This document shows, one piece after another, positions 11,080 to 46,086 of a DNA stretch of 64,000 bases. The DNA is from Strigamia acuminata (taxonomy: Eukaryota). The number at the start of each line of letters is the position of its first letter. Position 1 is the first letter of the stretch. The notes below the pieces were generated by a model. That model was not told the origin of the DNA. It made no database searches and worked only from the letters and a program-made list of their open reading frames with translations. Where the stretch lies: assembly GCA_949358305.1 (NCBI GenBank), contig OX442314.1, positions 22,444,001-22,508,000 of the forward strand, written 5' to 3'. Position numbers and translations under genes: made by a program.

Positions 11080-11121
<42 letters not shown>

Positions 11122-14791: not shown

Positions 14792-15374
14792 TGTAATTTT
14801 ATATTTATGCAATCTACAGATTTTTATAAATACGACGGAATTGTTTATTAAAAGTTAAAGATGACTAAATTAAAGTATCACACTGCTAGAATCCGCCATG
14901 TTGTGGGTGCAGCGCGGAACAAAATTTGACGTCACAACATGTAATAAAATGTAATAAAATCACGGATTATTTAATCTGTGATGATAAAATAACATAAAAT
15001 AATATTATTTTTATTATTATTTTTATTGGATTTAATGAATCAGGAAAAATAATTTAAAAAATTTTAAGCAATCCTGTCTTGAAAAGGGCGCAACTCGACA
15101 AGTTGTGCTCAATTGTATAACCTGTCTGAAATAAAAAAGAAAGAAAAGGGCTACTTTGAGTTGCCAGAGGTATTCAAATATGAAATTACTTTTTAAAGCA
15201 TGGTTCCGATTTTCCCAGCCGCTTGCAAAATTTTGCGCAGCTTTTATAGGTTTAATAATTATCAGTATTTTACTGAATGACAAACGAAGTACGTAAGAAA
15301 AATATTTAATTCAAAGTTCTATACAACTCTAAAGTTACAAATATGATTTTTTTTAAGGTCAACATTTGCCCATT

Positions 15375-17777: not shown

Positions 17778-20700
17778 ATGGCCCTCACACAAGCCGCTTC
17801 ATTGTGTCTTTTTGCAGTCATCATTGCCCATTTTATTGTTTCTAGTCAACACCATCAAAATCTTGTAAGTTATTTATGATAGTAACGCTTCTTTACCATA
17901 AATTTCACCAATATTTATTTATTTATTTACTGATATCATAGGAATTTCAAAGTCTGACAGTACGACAAGCAGAAACAATCACTAGAAAACCTTTATCAAG
18001 CTCTTGCACTTTTGATTCTTTTGATCCACCAGTAATTTCTGAACCAACAAACCCCCAGCAAGCGAGTCAAACATCTGCTGCACCCACTGCCGCGACTACC
18101 GTTGTAAGTCGATTAAAGCCAAATAAATTCAAAGACCGTACAAAGCGTGCTTTAGCCAACACGATTTGCAACATTTGGGACTTAACTGACTCTTCTTGGA
18201 CACTCAGTTCTGCGAGCAATGCATTTTTTAATGGGGGACCCCTAGAAGATGCTAGCAAGAATGCACGTAAGTAATTTTGATCTCAAGATGGCGTCAAACC
18301 GTTTTCTGATGTTCCAAAATAATCAATCTAGCTTCTCATGGTTATCTGGTATTGGATTTATATTCTAAAAAAACATTATCGACAACATCTAGAAGAGTAA
18401 CGAGTTTAACTCGACCCCCCACAGGACCAAAGGGAGTTTGTTTTACATTTGCTTTTGCTATAACTGGACTAGGAGCTGGTGGACTTGAAGTTGTGTTGAG
18501 TACGAATGATTCTGATAGTGGCAATAACACAAGTGAAAGAATCCTATGGAAAGATTTTGATGTTTCGGGAGGAAAATGGAAAAATGGATCCGTTTCCTTC
18601 ACATCCTCTAAACCCTACAAAGTAAATAGACTCCCAAATGACGATCTTTTTATGTTTTAAATGTGTACCATTTATATTTAGATTGCATTTCAAGGGGTTG
18701 GAGCAGATTTTAACATAAACATAGCTGATTTCCGTGGTTATGTCGCTATTGATGAAACTCAATTATTTGAAGGGTTTTGCAGAGGCGATTGCAATTTCGA
18801 TTTAGACACATGTCAATGGGAAAACGACAAGTTGGACGACTTTGATTGGAAGTTAGGATGGGGCACGTACTTCAGCAATACTGGCCCTTTAAAAGATCAT
18901 TCAGACTACGGCGGTTACCTTTACGTAGACTCTAATTATCCCCGACGAAATGGCGATATTGCCCGCATATTAAGTCCGAACATTACGGCCACTGATCCGT
19001 TATGCTTGCGTTTTTGGGTATCCGAGTTTGGTACTGGACTTGGGCCTTTGTCGGTTTTCATTGCACCATCTTCTGGTAACTCTACGCTCATTTGGTCAAT
19101 CAAAGAACCAATTGGGGCAGGATTGACAAGAGATACTTGGTATCCAGCACAAGTGACGGTGTCGTGGCCGTCTACATTTCGTGTAATAATTCAAGCAGCT
19201 GTGGGATTATCATCGAGAGGAAATATAGCAATTGATGATATAAGTTTTCAAGTTGGATCCTGTGCACGTACGTGAATTTCGAGTATATTTTGATAACTTT
19301 GCTTTGATTATGTACATTGTACAGCATTGCCTACAACAGCGAATGGAAGACCAGGAGAATGCGCTTTTGTGGACGACCGTTGCAAATGGACTGTGCAGAG
19401 AGTTCATCAAGCATTGAACAGTCCAGATTTGTGGAAATTGGTCAATAGTGGCACCCAGGTAGCTCAACCTACAGGACACACTGTATTGCCAGACACCCTA
19501 ACAGGTAAGAATTAGTCATTTCCAAAATAAAACTAAAAGTAAACGACATTTTGATTGTAAGATGGTTACATGAAATTCGAAACTAATTCTTACACGCATC
19601 AACCGCTTGACCGGTCACGGATTCTTAGTCCCATCTTACCACCAACTGATGGAAAGATTTGCATGAATTTCTGGGTTTATATGTCATCTCCAATAACTTC
19701 TAAAAAAGGATTGGGAGCATTACAAGTACTTTTTTTAAAAATATAATCAAATAGAATCTGTATTACTTGCCTTTAATGTAACAACAGGTTTTATTTCTTA
19801 ATTCCACTGATGATTCAACACCTCCAACTGTCATTTGGAGATTAGAAAACCATCAGTATCCTCACTGGATTCAGTCTCAAGTGTCCATTTCCTCAGAAAT
19901 ACCTTTCCAAGTAGCATTTGAAGGAATAAGAGGTGCCCAAGTGTTGGGATTGGTGGCTGTTGACGACATAGCCTTTGTGCATCCTTCAAAAGCTTTGAAA
20001 ACGAAGAAACGAAGGTTTAGGAGACAAGATGCACCCGCTACTCCACAAGTGACATCAGTAGCACCAGCAGGAGAAAATCCAACGCTTAGCACTCCAGTGA
20101 CAGGAGGTGTCACTACTGTGGTTAATCAAGTGATTTCCACAAATTTAAAGGATTCTTGTATAGGTAAATTGAAACTGTTATTGTCCAACTTGAAAATGCA
20201 TTGTTTTATGTGTTTATTTTATTTTAGTTCTTCCTGTTAAAGCAAAAGTGTTTCCTGCTGATTGTTCTTTTGATGTTGATTTTTGTGGGTGGACCACTTC
20301 AGGCATAAGTTCAGACGTCAAATGGCAAATGGCAAAACCAAATAAATCGCCTACTAATGTTCGTGATCGAACTTACAATATTCCTCAAGGTGAATTATAA
20401 GCATTAGTAATTTTTTTTTTTTTAAATGATTTTTTTCGGGGTATTTTCAGCTGGTTTTATTTATTTTGACCCATTTACACCAGCTGGTAACCCAACAACG
20501 GCGCATATAGAAAGCACCACTTTAACGCCCGCTCCGTCAGTCATGTGTATGACGTTTTGGTTCATGATTTACGGAAATGACATAAGTGAAGCATTTATTA
20601 GAAAAAATATTACGTAAAAATTAAATAAAAACAATTATAATTCTGTTGACATCATTCTAGCTGCTTCGTTGAGTGTGTCTGAACGGAAATTTAAAAATGA

Positions 20701-24868: not shown

Positions 24869-25316
24869 GTGCAAAGAAAACTAAAAGGTTAAGTTATTGT
24901 AACTAATTGCAAAATGGTGTAAGTAAAAAAAATCAAACAGTTTAAATAATAAAAAAAAAATATTTGAGCTAGTGTATTTAAAATTTTAAAAATGAAAGGT
25001 AGTAGATTTTTTTATATTGGTAGAAAACTTGGGAACATATTGGAAATATATAGGAAATGTATTGTGAAATTTCAAATTTTCAAAATTTTCAAAATTTTCA
25101 AAATGTTTATAAAGTTATTGTAAAAAAAATCATGTAAATGGTCTCTTTCCTAGATTGTAAAAATTTTCAGAAAAAACTTATTTTCAATTGATTGTAAATC
25201 TAATTTCCAAAGTTGTAAAATCCATCTGCTTTTATATTTACAATGCTCCACAAGTGAGTAAATCTGCTTTTTTCCGGTGCAGTCTCAGACAGATTAGTGT
25301 TCAAACAACCCGAATA

Positions 25317-26376
25317 ATGAAGATCACTTTACTCTTGGCAGTCGTCGCTGTTGTAGTTGTTGATGATGCGCAATCACAAGTAAAATTCAAGGATTCATGA
25401 TTAAGGAAAAAATTCTTATTTAAGATTAATTTGTTCAATATACTGTATTAGGAATGCGACCTAATAGACCAGTTTAACAATGGGTTTGCAAAATTGATCA
25501 GAACACTGGTTTCAGACACAGACGTAATGATTTTATTTACTCGACTGACTTACTTGTTAGTTATTAACATGAAATTTACCTTTTTTTTACAGCTCCAAGA
25601 CGCCTATGTTGGATGTGTAAAACCCTTCGTTTTGGGTGTACGTATTTTTTATTTAATATACAATTTATTACAATGTCGCAAGTACTATTTATTTTCTCGT
25701 AGGATTCCTCAGAATGCGACCCCAAAAAATTTAAACTTCCACAAGCCAAAATCTGTGAAAAAGTCATACAGCACGTGTGTTTTTATTTTATTTTATTTTA
25801 TTTGATTCCTCTTTTATTTATTGAAACATTCTAACAAAAATTTATAGGCGGAGTTTAAGAAACAAGTCAAAAATCACAATATTTTGGGCTTCAGAAATAT
25901 AATCGAAAATATAATTTACGCCGACGGTGGGGAGGTAGATGAATTCTGCAAAAACATGCCGACAGAAGTCGATAAACTGCTGCCGAAACTCACGAAAGAG
26001 GCGGAATTGGAGAAAACAGGTCTTGGCGAAACTACATTGATTTATACCTTTCGACACAATACAGTATAATAATTTCATTTAAAAGTAATAATTTTTTATC
26101 TTTGTATTTTTAGAGGAATTGCTCGATAAAGTGTGTAAAAAGAATCCCAATCGTTGTATAGATAAAGTATTAGCTTCCCAAGAAGCTCAAGACTTCTTTT
26201 TTGAAGATGTGTCACCAAGCTTTAAAGATTTCATCAAAAATATTATCGCGCAATTCAAAGAAAATGGAAATCTCAACGTTACCGGAAAATTGGAGTTGAT
26301 GTTCGGAGGTGGTGATTTTGGTATCAAAGTGACCAAATGTCTTAATAAAATTCTTACTATCTCTACTAGTAGCTAG
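25317..26376 (+). CDS. Orphan secreted protein, family A member 2 (last donor site altered, C-terminus shortened)
   Basis: MKITLLLAVVAVVVV signal; exons homologous to 40886-41967. The GTCAGT donor used by paralogues is absent; a nearby GT at ~26020 could restore the frame. Confidence 0.75.
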
Positions 26377-26809
26377 TTAAAGAGATGAAACACTTACAAA
26401 CTTTCCAACATTCTATTAATTTAGGTTGGTAATTCAATGTATTCGGACGTAATAAATTTTTGTTTTATTACCAATAACAAAAATTGCTTCCATTTAGCCA
26501 ATAAACTTAGTCAGAAATTTATTTCTATTGTGATAATGGAGTTAAAGGTCACATGGGTAAAAAATGAATGAAAGGGGCACAGAAGCAACTGTGCCGCAAC
26601 ATTAAACTACGTCAGGAATCTTTTCGAATCCATCTGGTTCTACGGATTCACGACGCTAGATGTCAGCGTTAATCAAACTGTAACGTATTTCCTTTGGATT
26701 TACGCTTCCTTTTCCTCCAAAAGCCGAAAGGCCGTGCGGACGGGTAAGACGAAAACTCGGTATCACTGGAAATAAAAGAAATAAAAGTACAAAATTGCGG
26801 AAGCAAATA

Positions 26810-27740
26810 ACTTATCAGCAAATGATCTTTTTCACTATAAATCCACTATTGACCATGAAATTTCTTTCAATGGTTGGGGTCTGCAAGTACATAGAAGTAG
26901 AAGGAGACAAATTATTAACAAAGTTGAAGAGATGCGGATTCTGTAAAACTGACTTGTCAGCGTTTTAAGTCAGTTGATTTTTTTTATGAATAATTATTTA
27001 CTGAGTAATTTTTTTTACGATGGTTCCAAACAATAAACTTTTTATCAAAAATACTATTTTAACGGTTGGCTATAGCAACCTGGCTGAAATACAGCTGACA
27101 TGTTGCGAACTCAAGAGAGTAGGCCTACTCTGTGATTCAGACATTCGTTTTGTGAGTGGCGGACGACGCTAAACGCACCTCACAAGGTAAATGACAAAAA
27201 GAGCACACTGGTTTTGGTGTCTAGGGATCAGTGTCCCTAACATGCATTACCTTGACCAACATCTGGCCACATAGTCGGACACCACATGGACAGCCTGGTC
27301 GGATCACTTTAAACCGTGCCGTTCTTTTCAGTACGGTTGCTGAACGATCGTTCACGTTGCTGGGCCAGTGGAAACCTGGCCGCTGAGCGCTGACCATACT
27401 GATCCTTTGTTTTGCAACTCCTCTTTCCCCAATGGTTCTCTCACCACTTTCTGGGATTGCTTTCGTCATATTGATGAGTCTAGTGACCTCTGGTGCCAGG
27501 TGGCCAAAGTTTTAGTGAAGAAGGGGTCAAATTTACAAAAGTTTTTGTAATGATTATCCAATGGAATATGAAAAAAAAAATAGAAGCTCAATAAAAACAA
27601 TTCAAAAATTACATTTCTTATGTCGTAATTCTGAGCTTTAAAGGTTACCTCATACACCTCATACCTCATATCTCAAACATAGGAATGTTTTTAAGTCTTA
27701 AGTGGGTGCCATTACATGGTGCTTTTGTTCAAAGTGTTCG
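26810..27740 (+). pseudogene. Degenerate family A fragments (exons 5 and 6)
   Basis: 26810-27020 matches exon 5 and the following intron of 43049-44095 (LSANDLFHYKSTIDHEISFNGW, GTCAGTTGATTTT) with deletions. 27683-27740 matches the KWVP exon with a frameshift. Confidence 0.75.
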
Positions 27741-28162
27741 ATCGTCGACAAAGTGATCGAGCCCCGATTAAGAGTCAGGAGATATTTCTAGATTTAATGG
27801 AAAAACATTTGGCCACATTGCAATAAGTTAAATGGAATTATAAAGTAGACAGGATTGGGGATAAATTCAGAAGATCAGTGTAACAAGTGAAAGAGAAAAC
27901 TGAAGGAATAAAAGTAGAAAATCCCTTAAACCTCTGTGGGATCGGTAGATCATTCCTTGGGCTTCCCATTTATTTGAAGCAAATCTTGTCTTCATTAGAG
28001 GAAATTGTCTCTTGTTATTTGAATCTTGAAAAATTAGGTGTGCATTAGAGAGAGGCAAATAAAGATGGCAGTTTCCAAGTTCCAAACCAGATTAAGAAAA
28101 TAATTTTCGGTTTGTCTTTTTCAGCCGCAAATTTGATATTTGTGATAATTATTTATTAGGCA

Positions 28163-29121
28163 TGCTGCGATCCGGGTTTTTATCCACTTAATTTCTAATA
28201 AATTAAGCAGAAACCGCAGGTGAATGCTTTACAAGACTTATATCGCGGCCGAAACTTGTCTAGGGTTAAGTTTACGGAAATAGGAATAAAAAGACAGTTT
28301 ATTATGGTAATAAAAATCACACAAATGTTTTATTCGATAAATTACAATATATACTAATTATGATTATGAATATCACAGAATAAAATGAGCGGGAAACAAT
28401 GAAACAAAGGAAGGGCTTGCAACGACTGTTGCAAGCTACAAAGCGTCAGAAATGGCGCTTAAACAACTTGAAGTTGTTAGGCGAAGGCAAATTGTCTTCG
28501 TTCTACGAACTCACGAACGATGGTCGAAGACGATGGTTCTCGTGGGCTCCTTCTACGGCTCGTGCGACGGCTCGGCGGCGGTGGTTGACGGCTGTAGGCG
28601 TCCGGCTTTCGTACGATGGCGGTGGCTGTCGTTCGCGCAACAGCGACGGCGATGGTTCACGATCGTCGGGAATCTTCTCTTCTCGATTGCTGGAATTAGC
28701 GACGGCTAATTCAAGCAGGATTGCTGGCTTTGTGCGTTTGATACACAAAGATAGCAGGTGAAACTGAGTTACAACGGTCCTCTATCAATACTTTTCTTTC
28801 AGGAGCAAAAGCAGTGATGTTGAGGTTGTTGTTGTATTTTTCAGAGTCCCGATTTGAGCCAAGACGCGAGCCCAGCACGCTTCAATATTGCGCAGAAAAC
28901 CTGCGCACTTAGCTCAAATGGGTGCAACTAGTGGTTATTACACCATATTGCACCATAACGGCTAATAACCGTTTTCACCCCGGACAACCTGGGGTGATAT
29001 GTGCCTAGAGAGGATTTCTCCCCTCGGTCACATGATCTGACTTGGCGTGTGCCACAGTCAAATTAATTAGAAGATAATTAATTTAATCTTCTAAGTTGGT
29101 GAATATTTTGAGATCACCACA
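28163..29121 (-). repeat. 3' LTR of element 1
   Basis: Direct repeat of 39544-40502 (offset 11381). PPT AAATGGGGGGATG (29122-29134, minus) abuts it. Confidence 0.95.
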
Positions 29122-29173
29122 CATCCCCCCATTTAAGACGAATCTTACATGGAGAGAAAATGAACGAACCAAT

Positions 29174-31969
29174 TTATGATTCGTCCATGGTCTGAGTTCG
29201 CTCAGGCGTCAACGGGCGCATCATATCCGTGGTGTCGTCCCTCGGGTTGGACCGCTCGTTAACCGTACACAGGTCGCGACCTGCGTTTGGTCCGGAGACC
29301 ATTCCAGGGTTGACATGAAGCCAAACCTGGATGATTCTTGCCGAGTTCGCTCGGTTGAAGAATCCTAGCGCCGCGAACTCGATTGGATCCTCTGGCGCTA
29401 ATCGTGCTCTCAGGAGTCGATCATGGAGCACCGATGGTGGGCTTAACACCCGGATGTGGTCCTCGAGCCACATAAACACCTGCCTCGACAACTTGTGGTT
29501 GTTGCTAAGCAGTGTTCGCGTATCCGGCGTCAAATAGAAGTGCGGATACAGGCGCATTAGGGTCTTGAAAGCCGACTCTTTTTTCAGCGGCTTGACCTTC
29601 GTCTCCGGCTTGGCTGGCGGCGGCGGCGGCGGACGTGAGTCTTCCGTCGTGGCATCGTCAAACTGGCACTGCGGGCCCAAGAAAACCAACGCAGGTGCGG
29701 AGGTTGACGAGGGTGTGACGCCTCGTCCCGGTGCTCGACCCACACCGGGGAGCTGACGGGTTTCGACTACCCGTTGAACTCCGGCTGGAGTTTGAGAACT
29801 TCCGGCGTTCTCTGGCCAAAATGAACATCCAGCGCCCTCTTGGGCCGACTGGAAAACAGCCAGTGACGCAGCTGCTGTGGCGCTTGTAACTGGAAGCGGT
29901 GGTCTTCCGGTCATTCGCGCCGTGGCCTTCGCAAAGGACCACTCGGTTCGCAACCGAACGGCGGCCTCTTCTTCGGTCTCACCGTTTGCTACGACTTGCT
30001 TTATTAGCTCGGCTAAGATCGTAGGCGGGTCGAGCCTGAGGTGGTACCACAGCTCGACTTTCTTCTCCGACAGGCCCATCGGCGCGGTCCAAAGGTACGT
30101 TATGGCCGCTAACGCCTGTCCTGGCGAAGGAAGAACACCAGGGTACAACACCCTAGTCATCCCCGGAATTAGCTGACGCTGAAAATCCATCAGACGGGGA
30201 TCATCAATGGTATTGATGTCGGAGACTTCTAGCCTTTCAGCTAGTCTCTGCCAGTCCTTCTGCGACTCGGCGATCTGGGCGCTTTGGTATGCGTCCAGCT
30301 TCTGGAGCACTTCCTGCTGTGCTCTAATGGGTTGCTGCTCGTAGCAGGTCCATTGTGGGCCGAATGACTCACTAAAAAATGGCCGGAGTTGCAGGTTGCT
30401 AACTCCAGCCGGCAAGCGGGAAACATATCCTTGTTCGGGCAAGCGGCTAGCATGTCCAGGTACTGGCACGCTACAGTCGGGAGAAATATCACCGACAACA
30501 CGTCTCATGGCGTATGGAGTAGCCGAGTTGTCCACTTTGAACGTGGAGGCGGTTCGGCTACTTCGGGCGGACTTAATTGTGGAGTCCGATTCAAAACTCA
30601 GCGAAGACGACGAGCCAAACGACTCTGGTGTCCGTCCTCGTCGCGACTGCGGGCGTGATGGCTGCGCGTCAGTCGAATATGGGCGTGATCGCTTCTGACG
30701 TTCCTCTCGATCGCGGCTTGATTCGCGGAACATCGGTCGGACTGGAACCGGCGGAGGGAGTTGCCCCACCCTCAAATCCTCGTCTTGCGGCGGAGGATTG
30801 ATGGCCGCTGGGGCCGGAATTTCATCTTCTTGATAAAAAGGGAGAGCGCAACGCGCTTGCTCCTCTGCCTCGTGTTCTCGAGCCAGTTGTCGATTTTCGT
30901 CGACGCGAAGCTGCACCGCGGCAGCTCTGAGTGCTTTGGACGGGAAAAATCCCGGAAAATCGTTAAAACACCCGGCGAGCGCCAACTGGTGGAGCTCGGT
31001 TTGTGTGACGGGAAGTTGTGGGTTCCCGTCACGAACGGATTTGCGATACCGTTTAACGACTTCGCGTTGTGTCGTCTTGAGGTTCTTCCTCAATTGGGTT
31101 AGAGCACCGTAATTAATTCCGGTACTCTTTAGCGCTCTTCTGCGCTCGTGACGCTCTCGTGGCGTCACTGGCCACTGGTTGTGCAGCAACTCTGCTGCAA
31201 GCGGTCCTGGGGGGCTCTCGTCGAGCGTCCACTCGATTTCGTCGACACCGTCCACGTGAAGGCGCTCGATGAATCTTCCTTTTGCACCAAATCCTTGCAG
31301 CGCTGATCTGCTGAAGTCGTGGCGCAACTTCCACCAGGTATTGTTTGCCGTCTTCAGTCTTCTGATTTTTTCGGGCAATGCCGCTCGAAAAATCAGCGGG
31401 TGCTGAGTCGGCACGTGATCGGGAAGCGCGAATGGCGTTTCTCGATCCCTCTCGATCTGTATTCGAAGAAAAATAAATAAATTAGTTTATTTAAAAATAA
31501 ACAAATAATTTCTTATTTGAAATATTTTTTAAGCTTAGCGCTTGTGGCTGTGAGTCACTAAGGGATGTTGGTTGTCATGGCAACTCCCTTCGCACATGCT
31601 TGAAGCACGTGACTTTTATAGCCGCCATTTTTATTTTTTAGCGGCTTGTGTTTGAAGTCAGGAAAAGTGAAATTACTCAATTTTTCTGACTTAAACACTT
31701 GGTAAAAATTTATTCTAATAATTTACCCGTTGTTGAAGCGTCAATTGAACGTCTTCATTTGCCCCTTCCATGGGCATTTCTCCGTCCGCCTGGAGTTGGA
31801 TCGCTTCCTCGTCCATTCTCTTTCGTTTTCCGGTAATTTCGGAAATTCTTTCGTCTTGAAAGAGAAATAATACATAAATCTTATGTTTTATCAAATTTTT
31901 CATACAGAAAAATTACTTACGATCAGGTTGTCGAACTATTCGGGTCGTAACGTAGGCGATGCGATGCAT
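29174..31969 (-). CDS. Element-1 ORF3: three-exon orphan protein, ~819 aa, not env-like
   Basis: Exons 31969-31921, 31854-31727 and 31456-29174 join in frame via GTAAGT..AAG (66 nt) and GTAAAT..CAG (270 nt) introns. KRKR NLS-like motif; no signal peptide or TM helix seen. Confidence 0.8.
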
Positions 31970-31994
31970 ACACTCTCGAAACTTTTGAAAAAGT

Positions 31995-32106
31995 GACTAA
32001 GTTCGTTGATTGCAAACACGAACTTGGATTAGAGACGCTTTGTGACGTCACTAATTATAACGTATGATTAACGTTGTCATTCGAGTGGGTACTACGAATG
32101 ACGTCA
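31995..32106 (-). promoter_or_regulatory. Putative internal promoter for ORF3
   Basis: Two perfect TGACGTCA palindromes (32043-32050, 32099-32106) between the pol stop and an Inr-like TTAGTC (32000-31995), ~30 nt upstream of the ATG. Confidence 0.5.
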
Positions 32107-32158
32107 CGAGATTGCTTTCTCGGATCTTTTGGGTAAACCCAAAAGGTGAAAGACAACA

Positions 32159-35100
32159 CTATGTCTTGGCTCGCGGAACGCGAGATCTCAAGTTGTACTT
32201 TGACTTTCGCGAAGTACAATCCAACTTGTTTAGATTGTCATCAGCATCGTCTCCAATGTCAGATGAGTTATATACTTCATTGTTTGAAATTTTCTCTTTT
32301 TCTAAAAACATTTCCTTTTCTAGATTTTCATCAAGAGAAACATTTTCAAGTCGCTGGTTTATTTCATCGACTTCGTTATTTTTGAGTTTCGATTTTTTAC
32401 TCGATTCCGTGTTTTCGACAGGAATTTTGGATAATTTAGCATCATCCAAGGTATTAACAATATTTTTTGTTTTTTGACCCACTTCCTCCCCTTCCAGCCA
32501 AATTTCTTGGTTGAAAACGGGAAAGTACGGCATTAATTCAGTGCCGTGAACAGCTGGATAAATTTTATTATCACTCAGCCGTCGAAGTTGAAAGGCGCCT
32601 CCTTGTAACCTTTTGATAATTACATAAGGCCCATTCCTTTTCGGTGAAATGCCTGCTGCTATTCCTTTAGCGGCATTTGAGAGAATATGAGACTCTCGCC
32701 AGACTAAATCATTTTGTCTGAAGTTGTCGAATTTCTTATCTGATTTTTCAGCTTCGACACGGCGTCTCAAATCTAAGACGTGAGACATCATATGCTGATA
32801 CGTCTCTGCAATTATTGTTTCTAATTTCTGAACATATAAATGCGGATTTTTTGGATCAATGACTAAAATTCCTTCCGGAATTCTTGGATCCCAAGGAATT
32901 CTTAATTCTCGGAAAAAATTTAAGAAAGCAGGAGAATAATCTCTGCCTCTTGTTACAGTTGTTCTCAAACTGAATGCAAATTCGCGTAGATACTCATCCC
33001 ATTGGTCATGAATATCTAAATAAATCGAAACTAAATATTTAATATCTCGATTGGTTCTCTCCACAGGATTGCTTTGTGGATGATAAATCGATCTCGGTGT
33101 TCGCGACATGTCGAATTTTTTGCAAAATTCTTTATAGACCTGTGATCGAAATTGTGGTCCATTATCACTTATGATTTGTCTCGGAAATCCGAAAGTCATT
33201 GATAAGTGATAAATTGTGTTGGCAACTTTTATTGCCGTTGGATTACACATTGGAAATAATTCGGGCCAATGTGTAGCGACATCTACGATGACGCAAATGT
33301 GGGTATTGTTTTTTCTGGTTCTTGGTTTGGGACCAGACAAATCCACACTGAGGCAGTCAAATGGTCCAAATGGTCCAATTTGAGCGCCTTCAATTTCGGT
33401 CTTTGATCTCGGCTTACATGCCTGACATCCTTGACAATGTTGAATAAAACGTGTAATATCACGTTTCATACCTTTCCAGGTATAAACTCTTCGAGTTCGG
33501 TACATTGTCCTCGCAATGCCTGGGTGGCCGGACAGTGGATGTCCGTGCATCAACCAAATGATTTTATAAATCAATTTTCTTGGCACAACAACTTTAAGTG
33601 CCCTACCATCCTCTCCCAATTCATCGGTGGAGGTAGGATGATAATGGAGTAGCATATCTTCTTCAATGAGATAAGTACTCGCGTGTCTTTCAAAGTTTCT
33701 TCTTTGAAGACGAGTTACTATGTAACTTGGATATTGCTTGTTTAGCAAGTAATTGCGAATATGTTGGCAAAATTCGTCTGCTTTTTGCGCTGCAATAATG
33801 TCATCTCTCGTTGGAGGATCACATTCTAATTGCTTCGCAATTTTAGCTGCAAATGCTTTAATTAAAACATTTGTTGTTGGCAGCTCGAATTTTTTAGCCA
33901 TCATAGCTCTTAATTCGACGTCAGGGGTTCCTGACGGATCATGCATGTTAATACAAAAATTAATTAATGCTTGATCGTCGTCATTAACTATTATTGACTT
34001 GGGTAATTCGTTCAATTTTCCCATTTGCCAACTTCGGCAAGGAGATGGACAATATGATAATAAATCATCATTATCGCCATCGTCTTCTGGTTCGTCAGGT
34101 GCGCTGACAGGTGCACGTGACAATGCGTCTGCTATTACATTTAGCGGACCTTTGACGTATTGTATTTCGAACGAATACGCCATCAGCTCCATTTGCCAAC
34201 GAGCTAATCTGCCCGACGGGTCAGATAACGACATCAACCACCTAAGTGCTTGGTGATCCGTTTGTACAGTGAATGTAGTGTACTCTAAGTATGGGCGAAA
34301 TTTGCGTAATCCCCATACTACTGCGAGACATTCTAATTCTGTCACAGTATAATTCTTTTCAGCGGGTTGCAAGCTTCTGCTTGCATACACGCATGGCATT
34401 TCGACTTCTTGGCCATCCACATTTTTCTTTTGTGTAAGGGCTGCACCCAACCCTTGTTTACTGGCGTCAGTATGAACAATAAATGGCATGTACAAGTCAG
34501 GCATCTTCATTGTTTCAGCATTCGTAAGCAGGTCTTTTATTGCGTCGAATGCTGCTTGATGATGCAGTTCCCAATCGAACTCCGCATCTTTCTTCAAGAG
34601 TGGCCTTAGTGGTTCTGCCACTGTGGCCAAATTCTTGATTAGGCGGTGAAAGAAATTCACCATGCCTAGAAATCTTTGTAATTCCTTAAGATTGGTAGGA
34701 GCAGGAAATTGCGTAATTGCAGCGACTTTTTTAGGGTCTACTGCAAGTCCTTCTACTCCTACTTTGTAGCCTAGAAAAATTAATTCCTTTCTACAGAGAT
34801 GCGTCTTGCCAGGGTGCGCATGTAAATTAGCTTCTGCCAATTTTTTAAACACTATATCTAAATGTTTAATGTGTTCTTCGAACGATTTGGATACAATAAT
34901 TATGTCATCCAAATATGCCCATGCAAATTTTCTGTAAACGTCACCCAAAACTTTTTCCATTAATTCTTGGAAGGTAGTTGGTGCGTTTACTAATCCGAAA
35001 GGCATGACTAAAAACATTAGTCTTCCCATTGGGCTCCAGAAGGCAGTTTTTTCTCTGTCTTCAGGTCGCAATTCTATCTGCCAATATCCCTTGGTCAGAT

Positions 35101-36412
35101 CTATAGTACTGACCCATTCGAATTCTCCGATTTCTCGCAGAATTTCCTCAATTGTTGGCATTTGAGGTGGGTTGTACTTAGTATGTGTATTGATGGGGCG
35201 AAAATCAATGCACAAGCGTGGGTCGTTTCCTGGTCGCATGACTAGGACTGGCCGCATTCCGTAATCGCCTTCAGCTTTGACGACTACGCCTTTGTCAATC
35301 ATGTCTTGACAAAGTTGTCTGATTATTTCCCTTTTTTGAGGGTTTATGCTCTTAAAGGGGACACGGATGGGTTTCTCCGTGTCAAGCTCAATTTTGTGCT
35401 TAACCAGGTGTGTTTTACCTGGATCTTTAGAAATAATCCTTTTATGTTTGGATAACATCTTTTCTAATAATTTGGATTGCTCCAAATTTAAGTTAGCTTC
35501 TTCGACTAACTTTTGGATGAAATTCTCTTCATCAATTTTGCCTTGAGTTACACTTGCAGCGTAAGCTTTTGCAAAGGTCATAAATGAGGAATCGGGTTCC
35601 TCTATTTTCTCCAAATAACGATCCAGCAACGCTTGTGGAATGTAGGGTAAATCTGCATCCATAGGTTGCGTGAAATTCCAAGACATCGTCTGTGGATTAG
35701 GTTGGATTTTTAATTTATTCATAAAATCGCAACCCAATAGTACCATTGGATACTTATTTGGTATTACGATGAACGGATGACGTAACGTGCCATGTGTCCA
35801 TCGAAATGAAAGATGGATGGTTCCATCTGGAGTGACTTCTTCACTTGCCGTCGTAACTCTGACACCAGGTCCGATAGGTCGTAGATATTTTTCTAGACCT
35901 AGTTGATTAATAACTGAAGTGGCTAGGAAGCTTTTATTTGCTCCTGAGTCCAACATTCCGGTTATTACACCTTTTAACGTTTCTAACTTTAACGTCGGAA
36001 GGTCTTGGCTGTTTGGTATTCCAGCCACTTTGCACTCAAACTTGCGCAATTTATGAGGAACTGTAATTGGAGGCTCCAAAGGCAATTCATCTAATAACTC
36101 ATTGGTATCAAGAGTTGTAGCTGCAAATAACTTAATGCACTCCTCAATTCCAGGTGTCTCTGGAACTGAGCTTGGTCTATCGTCTTTAACTTCGACTTTA
36201 TCTTGAATATTGGAAGTGTCTTCTTCAGTCGGGGTTTCGCCGACAATCTCCTTTTTTACATCAAGAGATCCTTTTTCTTTTAGTTCTGTTTGACGAATTA
36301 ATTCATCAATAACTTCTCCAACATCTTCCATTATCTTCAGATTTTCATTCTCTGATTCCGATTTCGGAGGTGACGCAGCGTCCACTAGACCTGATGGATC
36401 TGCGTCTACAAG
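32159..36412 (-). CDS. pol: Gypsy Pol polyprotein (protease, RT, RNase H, integrase), expressed by -1 frameshift from gag
   Basis: LDSGA protease, MPFGL and YLDDI RT, DASKQG RNase H, H..H..CQGC zinc finger, D-D-E core (VDL, SDNG, VER) and GPY motif; no stops. Confidence 0.97.
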   Translation of the reverse strand, partial: LVDADPSGLVDAASPPKSESENENLKIMEDVGEVIDELIRQTELKEKGSLDVKKEIVGETPTEEDTSNIQDKVEVKDDRPSSVPETPGIEECIKLFAATTLDTNELLDELPLEPPITVPHKLRKFECKVAGIPNSQDLPTLKLETLKGVITGMLDSGANKSFLATSVINQLGLEKYLRPIGPGVRVTTASEEVTPDGTIHLSFRWTHGTLRHPFIVIPNKYPMVLLGCDFMNKLKIQPNPQTMSWNFTQPMDADLPYIPQALLDRYLEKIEEPDSSFMTFAKAYAASVTQGKIDEENFIQKLVEEANLNLEQSKLLEKMLSKHKRIISKDPGKTHLVKHKIELDTEKPIRVPFKSINPQKREIIRQLCQDMIDKGVVVKAEGDYGMRPVLVMRPGNDPRLCIDFRPINTHTKYNPPQMPTIEEILREIGEFEWVSTIDLTKGYWQIELRPEDREKTAFWSPMGRLMFLVMPFGLVNAPTTFQELMEKVLGDVYRKFAWAYLDDIIIVSKSFEEHIKHLDIVFKKLAEANLHAHPGKTHLCRKELIFLGYKVGVEGLAVDPKKVAAITQFPAPTNLKELQRFLGMVNFFHRLIKNLATVAEPLRPLLKKDAEFDWELHHQAAFDAIKDLLTNAETMKMPDLYMPFIVHTDASKQGLGAALTQKKNVDGQEVEMPCVYASRSLQPAEKNYTVTELECLAVVWGLRKFRPYLEYTTFTVQTDHQALRWLMSLSDPSGRLARWQMELMAYSFEIQYVKGPLNVIADALSRAPVSAPDEPEDDGDNDDLLSYCPSPCRSWQMGKLNELPKSIIVNDDDQALINFCINMHDPSGTPDVELRAMMAKKFELPTTNVLIKAFAAKIAKQLECDPPTRDDIIAAQKADEFCQHIRNYLLNKQYPSYIVTRLQRRNFERHASTYLIEEDMLLHYHPTSTDELGEDGRALKVVVPRKLIYKIIWLMHGHPLSGHPGIARTMYRTRRVYTWKGMKRDITRFIQHCQGCQACKPRSKTEIEGAQIGPFGPFDCLSVDLSGPKPRTRKNNTHICVIVDVATHWPELFPMCNPTAIKVANTIYHLSMTFGFPRQIISDNGPQFRSQVYKEFCKKFDMSRTPRSIYHPQSNPVERTNRDIKYLVSIYLDIHDQWDEYLREFAFSLRTTVTRGRDYSPAFLNFFRELRIPWDPRIPEGILVIDPKNPHLYVQKLETIIAETYQHMMSHVLDLRRRVEAEKSDKKFDNFRQNDLVWRESHILSNAAKGIAAGISPKRNGPYVIIKRLQGGAFQLRRLSDNKIYPAVHGTELMPYFPVFNQEIWLEGEEVGQKTKNIVNTLDDAKLSKIPVENTESSKKSKLKNNEVDEINQRLENVSLDENLEKEMFLEKEKISNNEVYNSSDIGDDADDNLNKLDCTSRKSKYNLRSRVPRAKT

Positions 36413-36418
36413 TTTTTT
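36372..36418 (-). promoter_or_regulatory. -1 programmed ribosomal frameshift signal
   Basis: A_AAA_AAC heptamer (36418-36412) in the gag frame, 5-nt spacer, then stem GACGCAG/CTGCGTC with inner TCCA/TGGA. The -1 frame (LVDADPSGLVDAASPP) is the pol frame. Confidence 0.9.
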
Positions 36419-39400
36419 CGAAACATGTCAGTTATGATCTTGACTGCTTTTTCAAACTCAGCTGTTGACACTGGTTTGTCCTTTTTAGAGGAAGGGCAGT
36501 CTTTTTGCCAATGCCCTAATTTTTTGCATAAATTGCATGGATCAGTGGCAGGCGATTTCTTTTTCGTTGCTGCTGGCGAGGCAGAACGAGAACGAGCGTC
36601 AGACCGGCGCTCTGGCGACACCGCAGGTGACTTTGAATTCCTTTCGGTATTCACCTTTGATGCGTCAAATGAAACATTTTTTGGTTTCATCCTTGGCTTC
36701 CATTTGCCCGCAACGGGGTTATTTTTTGCTAACAACGCCGTTGCTTTGGCCAATAAAGCCATCGTCTCGTCTCCTGTTTCCTCCTCCTCTTCAGCTTCTT
36801 CAGCTTCAGACGACGGAGTTTCAGCTCCAGTTATATTTGCGTGTAACTTAGGGACTGAATGAGGATTTTTGACGTCCTTTTTGGAAGATTCTTTTTTCGA
36901 ACTCTTCTCATCCACTTCGTCTAGAAAGTCTTCGTAACTAGGTGGCTGCAACAATTTCAAACCATTAAAGGTTTCATTGTTTTGCTCAGCGAGTCTTTTC
37001 TCTCGCTTTAAGTACGCTGACCTTTCGGCTTCTGTAAGATAAGCTTTGTACTTTTCGTCAATGCGCAATTGATTGACTTCCATGAACTCGTTTAACTCGG
37101 AGAATTTCCCCGGGTCGGGAGCGTCCGACATCATCAGAATATTTTTACTATATTCTGTGAGGCCAGCTCTAAACTGATCATCTGCTGTTGCATCAGTAAC
37201 AGCATGTGGCATTCTGCCAAGCAGATTCTCTGCTCTTAGCATGTACGAATGTAAGCTTTCGCCTTTTCGTTGCTTAAGACATCTCCAGAGCGTTTTGATG
37301 TCTTCGCTCGATTCACCAAATTTAAACATAAATTGTTTAACGAAGTCATCCCACTTCGTGAAGTCTTTCCTGCGAAACCACTCCTTGACACCGCCAACTA
37401 GTATTCTTGGTACTAGATGGGCCAATGCACCTTCACAGCTAAAACTGTGAACTTTGCCTAGTTCGAATATTTCCAGCAAGAGGTTTGACCCTGCTTGCCA
37501 ATTTCCATTATAGGCATGTGGGATAACTCGATCCCATCTAATGAACTTTTCATCTGTTGTTTGATGAGTCCATTTATCAGAAGTAAATTCACTTATTTTT
37601 TGCAAAATAATTTTATCCCTTCTGCTTTTTCGCTGTTGTTGAGCATTTTGCCTCAACAACTGGTCAATCTCATCTTTCGTGTAGAAATCGGGTCTTTGAG
37701 TTCTACTACGTGTTCTGTGACGAGATCGCCCTCTCACACTGGGACGTGAGGAATCTGTATCTGACGCAGATTCATGATTCGGATTTGGCGGCGGATCAGG
37801 GTCCGGAGGATCGTCGCCATCTGGCGGACGACGGTCTCCATTTGGTGGTCCCCTTCCATTTCGATTGCCATTCGAATTGTGGTCACGTGAGTGGCCACCT
37901 CCATGTCCATCTGAACTATCTCCACCTGGTGGGTCACCACCTGGCGGATTTCCACGGTATCTCGGCCCATCACGGATGTCGTTATGACAATCTCGTTTTG
38001 GTGAGCCTTCTCGCGGATTATCGTGTGACCGTCCACGATCGTGTGGTTTCTCACGTTCTTTATTCTTTTTCTCTAGCATTCCGATTAATCGGTCGCTATT
38101 GCTAAAGAATCGATCCGAATCTTGCGTAACTTTTGGGGAATGATATTCGGTCGGGTCTGGTTGTCGCTTTCGCTTTTTGCGACTGTGATGACTGTTACGG
38201 CTTCCACGACTACTGCGTGAGTCATCACTGTCAGTCCAACTTGATTGTCGACTGACTTTTGGTTTAGCTGATGTTAAATCAATCAACTCAGGTGATTTGG
38301 AAGCACCTTTTTGCAAAACTGGGGCTGGCTTTGCAAAATTATCTTCGCCACAAACGTCTTGTACTTTTTGTACGACTACTGCAAAGTTTTCTTGTACCGT
38401 CAATAGATCTGCGCGAAGAATTTCGTTTTCACGAGCTTGCGCAGCTAAGTCGGCACGTAATAACTGCTCTGCAGTGCTTAGACTTTTGGCGGCTTGACCA
38501 GCATCAATTACAGACTGCTGTCGAGCGAGAAATACTTCATTTTCTCGTTGCGCTAATCTCTTAGCTCTTGCTGCTTGTTCTGCAGCATAATTCTCGTAAT
38601 TTCGAGACGTGGAGGGAATTACTTCCCTCGCTCGAACTGGGGCGGTTAGTTCGGCAGTCATTAAATTTGTGTTGGCTTCTCGCAAATTTGCGTTAGCCAA
38701 TCTCAAATTTTCATTAGCAATTTCTAAATCTTTTTGTGCTTGATTTAGTTGCTCGAGCCTTTGTTGTTGCTCTTCGTCAGTAATTAGCCAGGAAGCTTTT
38801 TCCTGTTCTAATTGTAACAACTTAACATGGTCATTCGCACGTTGTTGTTTTAGTTCGGCATTTTGCTGATGCATTTCTGCACGCATTCGCTCGAACTCTG
38901 CTTGCAAGCTTGTTCTGACGATTTCAACGTCTTTTTGGCTTTGTTTGCGAACCATAGCTTTGTGGATTTGTTCCACAGTCATTTCGCTAGTGACTTTTAC
39001 TCCCTCGAGCCTAGCTTGCTCACGGAGTGCGTCCATCATGGTAACACGCACGGGAGAATGAGAAACTTCCATATTGGAGTTCTCAGAATCTTGTTGTGCT
39101 GCACCTTGAACCGGTGATGAATTCAGCGAGTGCTCCGCACTTGATGATTGAATTCGTAAATTCAAATCATCGTTTTGCGACTTGGAACGGCCACTTCCAG
39201 TTGGATTTTTTAAGTCCAACTGGCCGCTGGGCGGGGATGGCTGTTGTCGCTCCAACGCTTGCGTGAATTCATTCACGATTAACTGTGCCGAGTTACAGTT
39301 AGCTGTTTGATCCATAGTTTCAAACAGTTCTTGTGACTCAGTCACTTCTTGATCCACGGCTGGTAGATCGATCGCCACTCGTCTCTTCGCTGGTCTGCCT

Positions 39401-39429
39401 CTCGGTCTCTTTTCGCCTGGAGTCGCCAT
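36406..39429 (-). CDS. gag: Gypsy Gag, 1007 aa
   Basis: First ORF after the PBS. Coiled-coil and low-complexity N-terminus, capsid-like WFRR...WDDFVKQFMFKF...LKQRKGESLHSY, and zinc knuckle CNLCKKLGHWQKDC. Confidence 0.92.
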   Translation of the reverse strand: MATPGEKRPRGRPAKRRVAIDLPAVDQEVTESQELFETMDQTANCNSAQLIVNEFTQALERQQPSPPSGQLDLKNPTGSGRSKSQNDDLNLRIQSSSAEHSLNSSPVQGAAQQDSENSNMEVSHSPVRVTMMDALREQARLEGVKVTSEMTVEQIHKAMVRKQSQKDVEIVRTSLQAEFERMRAEMHQQNAELKQQRANDHVKLLQLEQEKASWLITDEEQQQRLEQLNQAQKDLEIANENLRLANANLREANTNLMTAELTAPVRAREVIPSTSRNYENYAAEQAARAKRLAQRENEVFLARQQSVIDAGQAAKSLSTAEQLLRADLAAQARENEILRADLLTVQENFAVVVQKVQDVCGEDNFAKPAPVLQKGASKSPELIDLTSAKPKVSRQSSWTDSDDSRSSRGSRNSHHSRKKRKRQPDPTEYHSPKVTQDSDRFFSNSDRLIGMLEKKNKEREKPHDRGRSHDNPREGSPKRDCHNDIRDGPRYRGNPPGGDPPGGDSSDGHGGGHSRDHNSNGNRNGRGPPNGDRRPPDGDDPPDPDPPPNPNHESASDTDSSRPSVRGRSRHRTRSRTQRPDFYTKDEIDQLLRQNAQQQRKSRRDKIILQKISEFTSDKWTHQTTDEKFIRWDRVIPHAYNGNWQAGSNLLLEIFELGKVHSFSCEGALAHLVPRILVGGVKEWFRRKDFTKWDDFVKQFMFKFGESSEDIKTLWRCLKQRKGESLHSYMLRAENLLGRMPHAVTDATADDQFRAGLTEYSKNILMMSDAPDPGKFSELNEFMEVNQLRIDEKYKAYLTEAERSAYLKREKRLAEQNNETFNGLKLLQPPSYEDFLDEVDEKSSKKESSKKDVKNPHSVPKLHANITGAETPSSEAEEAEEEEETGDETMALLAKATALLAKNNPVAGKWKPRMKPKNVSFDASKVNTERNSKSPAVSPERRSDARSRSASPAATKKKSPATDPCNLCKKLGHWQKDCPSSKKDKPVSTAEFEKAVKIITDMFRKNL

Positions 39430-39523
39430 TTTTCAAATGAAGACAAAGAAAGGATAGAGAAGAAAGATAAGCAAGATAAAAATGGCGGGTAAATTTTAAA
39501 CTATCAAAATTTATACAATGACT

Positions 39524-39541
39524 ATCCCGGCCAGGCCCCCA
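39524..39541 (-). other. Primer-binding site, tRNA-Pro-like
   Basis: TGGGGGCCTGGCCGGGAT, 2 nt inside the 5' LTR; 15/18 match to the canonical tRNA-Pro PBS TGGGGGCTCGTCCGGGAT. Confidence 0.8.
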
Positions 39542-39543
39542 CG

Positions 39544-40502
39544 TGCTGCGATCCGGGTTTTTATCCACTTAATTTCTAATAAATTAAGCAGAAACCGCAG
39601 GTGAATGCTTTACAAGACTTATATCGCGGCCGAAACTTGTCTAGGGTTAAGTTTACGGAAATAGGAATAAAAAGACAGTTTATTATGGTAATAAAAATCA
39701 CACAAATGTTTTATTCGATAAATTACAATATATACTAATTATGATTATGAATATCACAGAATAAAATGAGCGGGAAACAATGAAACAAAGGAAGGGCTTG
39801 CAACGACTGTTGCAAGCTACAAAGCGTCAGAAATGGCGCTTAAACAACTTGAAGTTGTTAGGCGAAGGCAAATTGTCTTCGTTCTACGAACTCACGAACG
39901 ATGGTCGAAGACGATGGTTCTCGTGGGCTCCTTCTACGGCTCGTGCGACGGCTCGGCGGCGGTGGTTGACGGCTGTAGGCGTCCGGCTTTCGTACGATGG
40001 CGGTGGCTGTCGTTCGCGCAACAGCGACGGCGATGGTTCACGATCGTCGGGAATCTTCTCTTCTCGATTGCTGGAATTAGCGACGGCTAATTCAAGCAGG
40101 ATTGCTGGCTTTGTGCGTTTGATACACAAAGATAGCAGGTGAAACTGAGTTACAACGGTCCTCTATCAATACTTTTCTTTCAGGAGCAAAAGCAGTGATG
40201 TTGAGGTTGTTGTTGTATTTTTCAGAGTCCCGATTTGAGCCAAGACGCGAGCCCAGCACGCTTCAATATTGCGCAGAAAACCTGCGCACTTAGCTCAAAT
40301 GGGTGCAACTAGTGGTTATTACACCATATTGCACCATAACGGCTAATAACCGTTTTCACCCCGGACAACCTGGGGTGATATGTGCCTAGAGAGGATTTCT
40401 CCCCTCGGTCACATGATCTGACTTGGCGTGTGCCACAGTCAAATTAATTAGAAGATAATTAATTTAATCTTCTAAGTTGGTGAATATTTTGAGATCACCA
40501 CA
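39544..40502 (-). repeat. 5' LTR of element 1
   Basis: Repeat of 28163-29121. Inr-like TCAGTT near 40146 and AATAAA near 39710 on the minus strand. Confidence 0.95.
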
Positions 40503-40885
40503 GGCAAAATGTAAAATTTCTTAGCGAAGTTGTTTTTGTGGTTTTTAGACTTATTTACAATGCCCAATGCATTGATATGGTAATACTACATTCTCTGCAT
40601 TGTTGTCATTTCCTGTGCATGTTTATTTATTTACTTATATGGAAATACGATGCATGATGGTTGGGAAAAATTGATTTACAATAAAGTAAAAAAAAATAAT
40701 GACGTAAGAAGAGCAAAATAAGAGTGTTTTCAAATTTAAAACACGGATGTTCGTGAACGAATGTGAAACCCCTTAGCCTTTAATCATGCAAATAAGTTGA
40801 ATATTTTTATAAAACGCGTGGTTATAAAAGCCATCAGCTGGTGCGCACCAATCTCAGACAGATTAGTGTTCAAACAACTCGAATC

Positions 40886-41967
40886 ATGAAGATCACTTTA
40901 CTCTTGGCAATCGTCGCCGTTGCAGTTGTTGATGAAGCGCAATCCGAAGTAAAATTCTAGGACATGATTAACGATAAAAAGACGTCTAATTTATTTTGTT
41001 TAATTTGTTTAAAATATTAGGATTGCTGCATAGTCAAACAGATGTATGCTGCGGTTGAAAAATTCATCAGACAGCTGGTTCCGGACAAAGCCGTAACAAT
41101 TTTATTTGCTATAGACTGTTTTATTTATTAACGTGTATTTTGACATTTTTGACAGCATCATGACACCTATTGTGGATGCGCAAAAGCTTTCATTTTAGGA
41201 GTACGTATTTTTTATTCAGTTTACAATTTATTACAATTTCTCAAGTTATATTTATTTTCTCGTAGGATTCCTCACAATGCGACCCCAAAAAATTTAAACT
41301 TCCACAAGCCAAAATCTGTGAAGAAGTTATGCAGCACGTGCGTTTTTATTTCATTTGATTTGATTTGATTTTTATTTGATTCCTATTTCATTTATTGAAA
41401 CATTGTAACAAAAATTTGTAGACGGACTTTAAGAAGAAATGCAAAGAACACAATATTTTGGGCTTCAAATCTTTGATCGAAAATGCAGTTTACTCCAACG
41501 GTGGGGACGCTGATGAAGTCTGCGAAAACATGCCAAAAGAAGTCGATAAAATGTTGGCGAAAGGAAAAGAATTGGAACAAGGAGGCCCCGGCAAAGCTAG
41601 TCAGTTGATTTATATCTTTCGATACAATATAATGATTTCAGTTGAAAGTAATCATTTTTTTTTCGTATTATTAGAGGAAGTGTACGACAAAGTGTGTAAA
41701 AAGGATCCCAAAGGTTGTAAAGATCTGACAGACCTTCCCCAAGAAGCTCAAGATTACATTACGAAAGATATGGCACCATGCTTTAAAGATTTAATCAAAT
41801 TGTGTAAAAATACCGCGAAATCCAAGACCATGCCTGCAATTGGCGCTGCTACTCAAGGAGTGGAATTGATGTTCGGAGGTGGTGATTTTGGTATCAAAGT
41901 GTCCAAATGTCTTAATGAAATTATTACTCTCGCTACCAAGATGGGTAAATCTATTTCTGGTCGTTAA
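40886..41967 (+). CDS. Orphan secreted protein, family A member 3
   Basis: TATAAAAG ~60 nt upstream, MKITLLLAIVAVAVV signal and six exons splicing in frame. Closest to 25317-26376. Confidence 0.88.
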
Positions 41968-43048
41968 GGAGTTGAAGTACTAAAATGTAATAATTGTACA
42001 ATTAAAAATTGTAAAATAAAAATACTTTCCAAAAGATATTATTATTGTATTTATATAGGTTGGAGATTCAGTCTCTCCACAATCCACACATGATAAATTT
42101 TTAGATTAATAGATTGCTTTAATTTTGTCAATAAAAATAAATTTGATTTATTTTAATTCAAACTATATTTTTTCCAAAAGATGATAAGGACGCCAATTTA
42201 GTGTGTTCTTCACTGTTATTCAGATGTAAAAATTGGGTAGTCAAGAAGCGGACGTTAGTAAAGTCATGAAATATCAGTAAAGCAAGATGGAGTCGGAGCA
42301 CTCACAAGCGACACTTAAATTTGGCGGCATTTGATTATTTTTTCAAACTTTCATAATGCGTTGTGCAGAGGAGTCGAAAGCAAAAATTGTCCAGGAATTG
42401 ACCAAAAAGTATTGCGGCGAAACCTGCATCTATTTTACATTTATCGCAAGCTTTTTATTATTATTATAATTATTTTCTCTGCAATGACTACAAATGGCGA
42501 CATTTTCCTCTGAGCTCTCAAAAGGTTTTGTTTACCCAGATCCACTGTTTGTTATTGTTACTCAAAATTCATTCTGTTTTAAACTTTCTGTGTTGCAACC
42601 GATCACAACAATTAAAATACCACGTTAGAAACTCGTATCATGGTCGTCAGTTGCAAGTGTTTCGCTGTATACAAGAATGCCAGTCGGTATATCAGCCTGA
42701 AGTGAGGTTTTACAAAAAATAATTATATTGCAAAACCAACTACTTGAAAGTATTTTCTTTCGTTTAATGATGCGTATTGCATATTTACGGTGTGAAAGGA
42801 AGTTGGTGTGCGTTTCCACAAAAGCACGGATTGTGTGCGTAGGGGTCGAGAAAATTATGATTCTAGACCGACTGATAATGGAGATGTAGAATTTGCCACG
42901 GATGTTCGTGAACAACTGTTAAACCCCTTATATTTATTGTAAAAAAATATTTGCGTTTTAGGATAACGAATAATTTTTGTATGCAAATTTGTATGCAATT
43001 TTTGTACGAAAACATCAATTTTGAAGTGACAAACTCAGAACTATAACC

Positions 43049-46050: not shown

Positions 46051-46086
46051 CTTCCCCCCTTTTTAGGAAGTTAGTTCCTAACTTCT

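Follow-up and report, generated by a model that had tools for sequence, protein, structure and literature searches.

The window analyzed here, a stretch of 64,000 nucleotides of Strigamia acuminata DNA, contains an intact Ty3/gypsy retrotransposon of approximately 12.3 kb (28163-40502, minus strand), whose third open reading frame (ORF3) lies behind pol and is interrupted by two putative introns. ORF3 is a real coding gene that is kept intact through purifying selection, and the DNA copies of the element keep both introns. The ORF3 product is likely made from a spliced subgenomic RNA, as judged from the splice signals and frames, and the retention of these introns suggests that its protein may regulate the element's own RNA.

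The LTR ends, the primer-binding site, the polypurine tract and the target-site duplication are all those of a Ty3/gypsy element. The Pfam domains of pol follow the order PR-RT-RNaseH-integrase; the best relative with a solved structure is the Ty3 reverse transcriptase (E=7e-84), retroviral reverse transcriptases come next at 1e-27, and the nearest Pol matches are 29-46% identical. Eight related pol loci (34-42% identical) end too soon, or are truncated, for the region past pol to be seen in them. In the available part of the supplement of PMC13524379 the primer-binding-site motif had no match. The features of the element are as follows:

39544..40502, minus strand: 5' LTR, with TG...CA ends, an Inr-like TCAGTT at 40148 and a donor-like TTC/GTGAGT at 39895
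39524..39541, minus strand: primer-binding site, 2 nt after the LTR, beginning with TGG and presumably tRNA-Pro-like
36406..39429, minus strand: gag, approximately 1007 codons, with a Retrotrans_gag domain and one CCHC knuckle
32159..36427, minus strand: pol frame (PR-RT-RNaseH-integrase), overlapping the 3' end of gag
36418-36412, minus strand: A AAA AAC heptamer, the likely -1 frameshift site in the gag/pol overlap
31970..32158, minus strand: pol-ORF3 spacer, 189 nt, predicted to fold strongly; it may be an internal promoter or may hold the acceptor of an RNA begun in the LTR
31921..31969, minus strand: putative ORF3 exon 1, beginning with ATG, 49 nt, the least secure exon
31855..31920, minus strand: putative intron 1, 66 nt, GC 0.20, GTAAGT...AAG
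31727..31854, minus strand: putative ORF3 exon 2, 128 nt, encoding KRKR and having in-frame ATGs of its own
31457..31726, minus strand: putative intron 2, 270 nt, GTAAAT...CAG, with AT-rich ends and a row of hairpins predicted mid-intron
29174..31456, minus strand: ORF3 exon 3, 2283 nt, 760 codons, the first ATG being codon 242, under purifying selection
29122..29137, minus strand: polypurine tract
28163..29121, minus strand: 3' LTR, the same sequence as the 5' LTR
28159..28162: 4-nt target-site duplication, with the second copy at 40503-40506

The element is recently inserted and multi-copy, and its family is active. This agrees with the young gypsy element proposed by the first-pass annotation, as both LTRs are 959 nt long and 100% alike, and an empty site is present, seen in 2/2 public runs as a joint from which 12344 nt (the element plus the duplication) are missing. 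Since both runs show the empty site, this insertion is not fixed. The two runs come from one study; their kind is not on record, they are DNA-like, and the window itself may derive from them.

The three exons total 2460 nt, that is, 819 codons and a stop. Intron 1 is a phase 1 intron of 66 nt (GTAAGT...TTTCAAG), and intron 2 is a phase 0 intron (GTAAAT...ATACAG) in which a branch-like CTAAT sits some 30 nt upstream of the AG. Reading from the ATG without splicing runs into a stop after 18 codons, the exon-3 frame is closed by stops 10 codons upstream of the exon, and the base content has sharp AT/GC steps at all four exon/intron borders. As a sequence arrangement, the earlier model of three exons and two GT-AG introns is thus borne out together with its phases and its 819 codons, and so is the claim that the coding DNA of ORF3 is richer in GC than pol (0.57 in exon 3 vs 0.40; GC3 0.59 vs 0.34). 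Intron 1 is within the range of the introns of the host LIG4 gene (54-73 nt, GC 0.15-0.30, AAG acceptor in 2/11), the comparison comprising 11 candidate introns, one of them with a doubtful acceptor. GTAAGT and GTAAAT occur once each on the 12.3-kb sense strand, both at the donors. The neighbouring element and the antisense strand have few of them as well, so this rarity is not strand-specific; a looser donor pattern yields 40 donor-like sites in the element, the gag region among them. Splicing at the intron-2 acceptor is very probable and splicing of both introns as drawn is probable. The idea that the splice sites are hidden in hairpins was not supported: predicted accessibility is mixed, with acceptor 2 accessible (0.84) and the others at about the median or above.

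To determine the pattern of selection, both runs were mapped to 29122-32200, which gave 106 variant places at a share of at least 8%; the 40 best-supported ones were considered, 36 of them in exon 3 and none in exons 1-2. Among the 36 listed exon-3 variants (from the best 40 of 106), 26 are synonymous, 10 are non-synonymous and none is a stop. The pN/pS ratio for these 36 variants is 0.16, and the synonymous excess over the expected share of 0.29 has a binomial P=1.3e-7; when the frame is shifted as a control, 4/36 are synonymous in each of the two other frames. For pol and gag the synonymous counts are 6/10 and 6/13, respectively (best 40 of 216 variant places). No indels at a share of at least 8% were seen across 29122-32200 in the two runs. 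The first-pass annotation had proposed a comparison of copies for intron retention and for selection, and had regarded decay of ORF3 in most copies as contrary to its reading; the copies retain the introns in DNA (see below), the exon-3 ratio among the listed variants is far less than one, and the 36 listed exon-3 variants include no stops.

The same variants bear on the start of translation. Before codon 242, nine of the 11 listed exon-3 variants are synonymous (P=6e-4), and this excess argues that this part of exon 3 is translated from an upstream start; because the frame above exon 3 is closed by stops, this is most simply explained if an upstream exon is spliced to the acceptor at 31457. 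Alternatively, the introns could be false, with exon 3 translated via recoding, from a non-AUG start or as a shorter product, and with the upstream exons in phase by chance. The length of intron 1, which is a multiple of three and includes an in-frame ATG, and its AAG acceptor would fit this explanation, but the synonymous excess before the first exon-3 ATG, the canonical donor, branch-like site and acceptor, the steps in base content at the four borders and the stop-closed frames upstream of exon 3 speak against it, and we consider it very improbable. Exon 1 may be dispensable, as in-frame ATGs occur in exon 2 and intron 1; given these downstream ATGs and the lack of listed variants in exons 1-2, it is the splice signals that define exon 1.

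Retention of the introns is seen directly in contigs. A 486-nt contig of run X1 corresponds to 31662-32147 without mismatch, with intron 1 in full and donor 2. Its depth of 5964, compared with approximately 90-125 for unique contigs of this run, suggests that intron 1 is present in tens of copies, depth not being the same as copy number. Three diverged contigs span acceptor 2 into intron 2, and a listed variant at position -3 of intron 2 leaves the acceptor a pyrimidine-AG. Six joints were listed in 29122-32200, and neither intron corresponds to any of them; they are all deletions at low depth, and in one case exons 1-2 are lost together with the ORF3 start. As contigs lose rare variants, a few intron-less copies may exist.

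By sequence comparison, the predicted ORF3 protein is an orphan without a recognisable relative. No relatives of exon 3 were found in Pfam (best E 0.1), among PDB sequences, in a collection of 5.8 billion proteins that includes those of S. maritima (7997 candidates of 418-1330 residues scored), among 1.84 billion representatives or in viral contigs, and 14 pattern matches in metagenome contigs yielded no confirmed one. The ESM Atlas, queried with the whole of exon 3 or with residues 365-545, gave no usable match, which indicates neither absence nor novelty. The single-sequence structure models (pLDDT 41 and 42) are too poor for fold search: Foldseek with the low-confidence all-helical model returned nothing at E<=0.001, and VIA, with a best Z of 6.2 (rmsd 12.9, 83 aligned), and the accompanying generic helical hairpins are uninformative for such a model. 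There was no Pfam or PDB sequence match to an F-type or gB-type fusogen, the fold search for these again starting from the low-confidence helical model.

ORF3 was rejected as an env, as it has neither a signal peptide nor a membrane segment and matches no env family in Pfam or among PDB sequences. Here the earlier description of the protein holds in most respects: the peak 19-residue hydropathy in exon 3 is 1.0 and exons 1-2 encode charged residues, in line with the absence of a signal peptide and of a transmembrane helix; the basic NLS-like motif is present as KRKR in exon 2; and no clear match to a known env or accessory protein emerged from Pfam, PDB or the large protein collections. Exon 3 further has one N-glycosylation sequon and seven scattered cysteines with no Cys loop; its counts of NLS, NES and Arg-rich motifs are not in excess over shuffles, and no late-domain motif was found in ORF3. 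Of the three globular blocks proposed earlier, three helical blocks are recovered (exon-3 residues of approximately 84-203, 375-539 and 629-730), though only in a single-sequence model of low confidence (mean pLDDT 41). The listed exon-3 variants weakly favour these predicted blocks, which are separated by Pro/Ser/Arg linkers: the ratio of synonymous to non-synonymous variants is 18:3 in the blocks vs 8:7 in the linkers (Fisher p=0.058). A motif resembling the capsid homology region, noticed by eye at exon-3 residue 492, was considered as a trace of gag duplication and dropped, since neither Pfam nor BLAST against the element's own gag supported it; a shuffle test of this motif is circular.

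The separate base composition of ORF3 raises the question of its origin. The gene could have been captured from the host together with its introns, an old biochemical activity being of benefit to the element or the host: intron 1 resembles host introns, GC3 differs sharply from that of gag and pol, which implies a separate origin, and Strigamia Copia elements have taken up a host MBD, according to the available text of PMC6673714. We nevertheless regard capture as improbable, as no relative was found in the collections described above, S. maritima included, and as ORF3 shares the element-wide folding described below, implying long evolution inside the element. RNA-mediated gene capture, moreover, usually loses introns.

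Complex retroviruses (Rev, Tax/Rex, foamy Tas/Bet) have spliced regulatory genes near the 3' LTR, and their introns persist in the genomic RNA; unlike the element described here, they are Retroviridae with an env, and they have no homology to ORF3. For ORF3, the retention of both introns in new copies means that the RNA which is packaged and reverse-transcribed must be unspliced, and a genome that keeps its introns while its protein requires a spliced message needs a switch. The reading that we tentatively prefer is that the ORF3 protein is a CERV- or Rev-like factor for the unspliced genomic RNA. The spliced subgenomic RNA would give rise to the ORF3 protein, which would act in the nucleus and let the intron-keeping genomic RNA evade splicing and leave the nucleus; a protein made only from spliced RNA and protecting unspliced RNA would constitute a Rev-like feedback. 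As the sequence and fold searches connected ORF3 with neither CERV nor Rev nor any RNA-binding family, this function is proposed by analogy. The precedent with a tested function is the Cer1 protein CERV, which is nuclear, is made from spliced RNA, is not an env and is required for the export of unspliced genomic RNA; simple retroelements of the Mason-Pfizer type, in turn, keep their splice sites without a trans factor (both from the accessible passages of PMC10309623).

The RNA encoding ORF3 may come from an internal promoter or from the donor in the 5' LTR, the sequence signals being compatible with either. The donor at 39895 is strong and is a candidate for an env-type splice route, and a T-rich AG with CTAAT precedes the ORF3 ATG. 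In the spacer, two palindromes TGACGTCA (CRE) are located at 32106-32099 and 32050-32043, 56 nt apart, and an Inr-like TTAGTC is located at 32000, 31 nt upstream of the ATG. Both routes are known from the Tor elements, since, in the parts of PMC4402516 that are available, Tor4b has mapped internal promoters downstream of pol and the env of Tor3a is LTR-spliced. Intron 2 has a cluster of motifs at 31631-31551 (minus strand), lying in the arms or loops of predicted hairpins. These motifs resemble YY1, TATA (TATAAAAG), E-box and AP-1 sites; the cluster may act as an enhancer or as a second promoter, or it may reflect RNA structure only.

If the LTR donor is used, ORF3 could be expressed from an env-style message (39895 to approximately 31982, 31855 or 31457) and the protein could be a cytoplasmic or particle-bound helper of assembly, transport or cell-to-cell passage, with no trans factor involved. 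The strong leader donor, the T-rich AG and the Tor3a env agree with this, as do rotifer-element ORF3s reported to be spliced (PMC5408684) and the precedent of sORF2, a protein for env-independent transmission (PMC11952523), as far as the available portions of these sources go. Known transmission helpers, however, are small membrane proteins, whereas ORF3 has neither a membrane segment nor a late-domain motif and encodes KRKR in exon 2, and a helper of this kind is unlikely. If the spacer promoter is used, the protein of the spliced ORF3 could be a transactivator or anti-silencer that acts on DNA or chromatin from this promoter, like foamy-virus Tas or plant VANC. The two perfect CRE sites in the 189-nt spacer with the Inr-like motif, the promoter of Tor4b, the methylation of silent transposons in Strigamia (reported in the portion of PMC6673714 available), the lack of CpG depletion in the element (CpG o/e 0.96-1.27) and the helical blocks with Pro/Ser/Arg linkers, which suit a nuclear regulator, are in favor of this explanation. 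On the other hand, the count of three CRE sites in the whole window is matched by 9/100 shuffles and both spacer sites are within predicted stems, CpG depletion is absent from host DNA too, no DNA-binding or chromatin domain was recognised in ORF3, and the retention of the introns would be left unexplained, which makes a transactivator somewhat unlikely.

Folding predictions single out the whole element. In 188 windows of 120 nt across it, the mean z-score against dinucleotide shuffles is -2.47; on the sense strand z is between -2.5 and -3.0 for gag, pol, ORF3 and the LTR, and on the antisense strand it is weaker (gag -1.75, pol -2.15, ORF3 -2.28). Four host samples have z from -0.02 to -0.3, and the ORF of the neighbouring element has 0.04. 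In the RT region z is -2.9, compared with -0.4 to +0.44 in eight other gypsy loci, five of which have broken frames. Intron 2 alone folds with z -6.7; it was rejected as a distinct Rev-response-like element, since windows of equal length elsewhere in the element fold at least as well, and its comparison with Rfam gave no notable match (two at E 0.12 and 0.62). The literature search on this folding property in retrotransposons found no paper with such a title. Persistent RNA viruses are known for ordered RNA structure at the genome scale, and the predicted element-wide folding is possibly a cis-acting structure. A broader reading is that of a 'complex' retrotransposon that evolved independently in centipedes, in which an internally promoted, doubly spliced gene of the element's own for a new family of nuclear regulators and a 12-kb RNA folded from end to end would together form a switch between spliced and unspliced RNA. 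This combination we consider doubtful.

The comparison with known systems starts with Cer1 of C. elegans. According to the accessible passages of PMC10309623, CERV/Cer1 resembles the present case in being a Gypsy element with a large non-env ORF in the env position, in having a basic NLS-like motif and three predicted structured domains in the protein, and in having no homologs outside the host group; CERV is made from a multi-exon spliced RNA and the genomic RNA keeps the splice sites, the splicing of ORF3 being inferred. The differences are these: CERV exons 1-4 lie within gag and only exon 5 lies behind pol, whereas the ATG, exons and introns of ORF3 as modelled are all behind pol; CERV has 517 residues vs the 819 of ORF3; and the cysteines of ORF3 exon 3 are scattered and form no Cys loop. 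Searches of the large collections provided no sequence link between ORF3 and CERV, and the ORF3 models are too poor for a comparison of folds. These precedents also temper a premise of the first-pass annotation, namely that sense-strand introns are normally purged in retrotransposition: it was overstated, as Cer1 retains sense introns with a spliced non-env product (PMC10309623) and internal promoters are known in Tor elements (PMC4402516), as far as the available parts of both papers show.

Other third genes differ more. In the Oikopleura elements Tor3b/4b, expression of the third ORF begins internally, within pol or the spacer that follows it, which would be alike if this route holds here, but the Tor ORF3 is a membrane glycoprotein Env with unspliced transcripts (available parts of PMC4402516). 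Errantivirus-type elements with env share the gag-pol-ORF3 order, while ORF3 of the present element has no env features; the passages available from the survey PMC13524379 do not treat intron-bearing non-env third genes, and its genome table has an entry of 1 for S. maritima in the POL-ENV columns. Lineage-specific accessory genes of Ty3/gypsy elements include the bdelloid ORF3s (PMC5408684), gene23 of Grande (PMC7264820) and the sORFs of the MDG1 group (PMC11952523); in the portions of these papers available, some are nuclear or have their own promoter, they are enzymes, antisense genes or short proteins, and a large gene in sense orientation with two short internal introns is not among them (for accessory proteins in general, see PMC13547354, likewise available in part).

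Non-env third ORFs are therefore already known from rotifer, plant and Drosophila MDG1-group elements, and a spliced one in the env position from Cer1, to the extent that these sources are available. New relative to the literature found are a large gene in sense orientation with its start and two short, host-type putative introns all located behind pol, an orphan protein, and an RNA with predicted folding throughout. No title or abstract opening in this literature dealt with the element or described a gypsy gene carrying internal sense introns that lie entirely downstream of pol; the search did not extend to subscription papers, Repbase/Dfam or bioRxiv supplements. The nuclear exit of unspliced RNA and the escape from germline silencing in env-less LTR retrotransposons are largely open questions, CERV being the one tested gypsy-encoded factor found. 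Two host-type introns kept over many rounds of reverse transcription offer a compact test of regulated intron retention, and the folding signal, which the eight other gypsy loci lack, is another peculiarity open to testing. Because ORF3 is split and matches no known family, its start would escape ORF-based annotation, and intron-bearing retrotransposon genes like it may be under-counted.

Several observations concern the neighbourhood of the element in the window. A second young LTR element at 44891-51800 (minus strand) has identical LTRs of 1160 nt and a 4-nt target duplication; its primer-binding site and polypurine tract resemble those of the main element, and there is otherwise no similarity between the two. 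Its single frame of 1446 codons (50427-46087) lacks an RT and matches nothing in Pfam, and the element is probably non-autonomous, encoding an orphan or much-diverged gag-like protein. Diverged local duplications (70-94% alike) at approximately 25300-27750, 40850-44000 and 55400-57050 flank both insertions, which suggests that both elements inserted into a tandem array of host genes. The region 58341-64000 is a large inverted duplication with arms of more than 1.7 kb, 97-98% complementary, and with two facing ODR4-like copies. Host genes at approximately 6980-19300 are those for DNA ligase 4 (plus strand), an importin-13-like protein (minus strand) and a MAM-domain protein (plus strand); the DNA ligase 4 exon, 82% identical to that of Strigamia maritima and at most 64% identical to the other 119 listed proteins, places the host among the centipedes and probably among the geophilomorphs.
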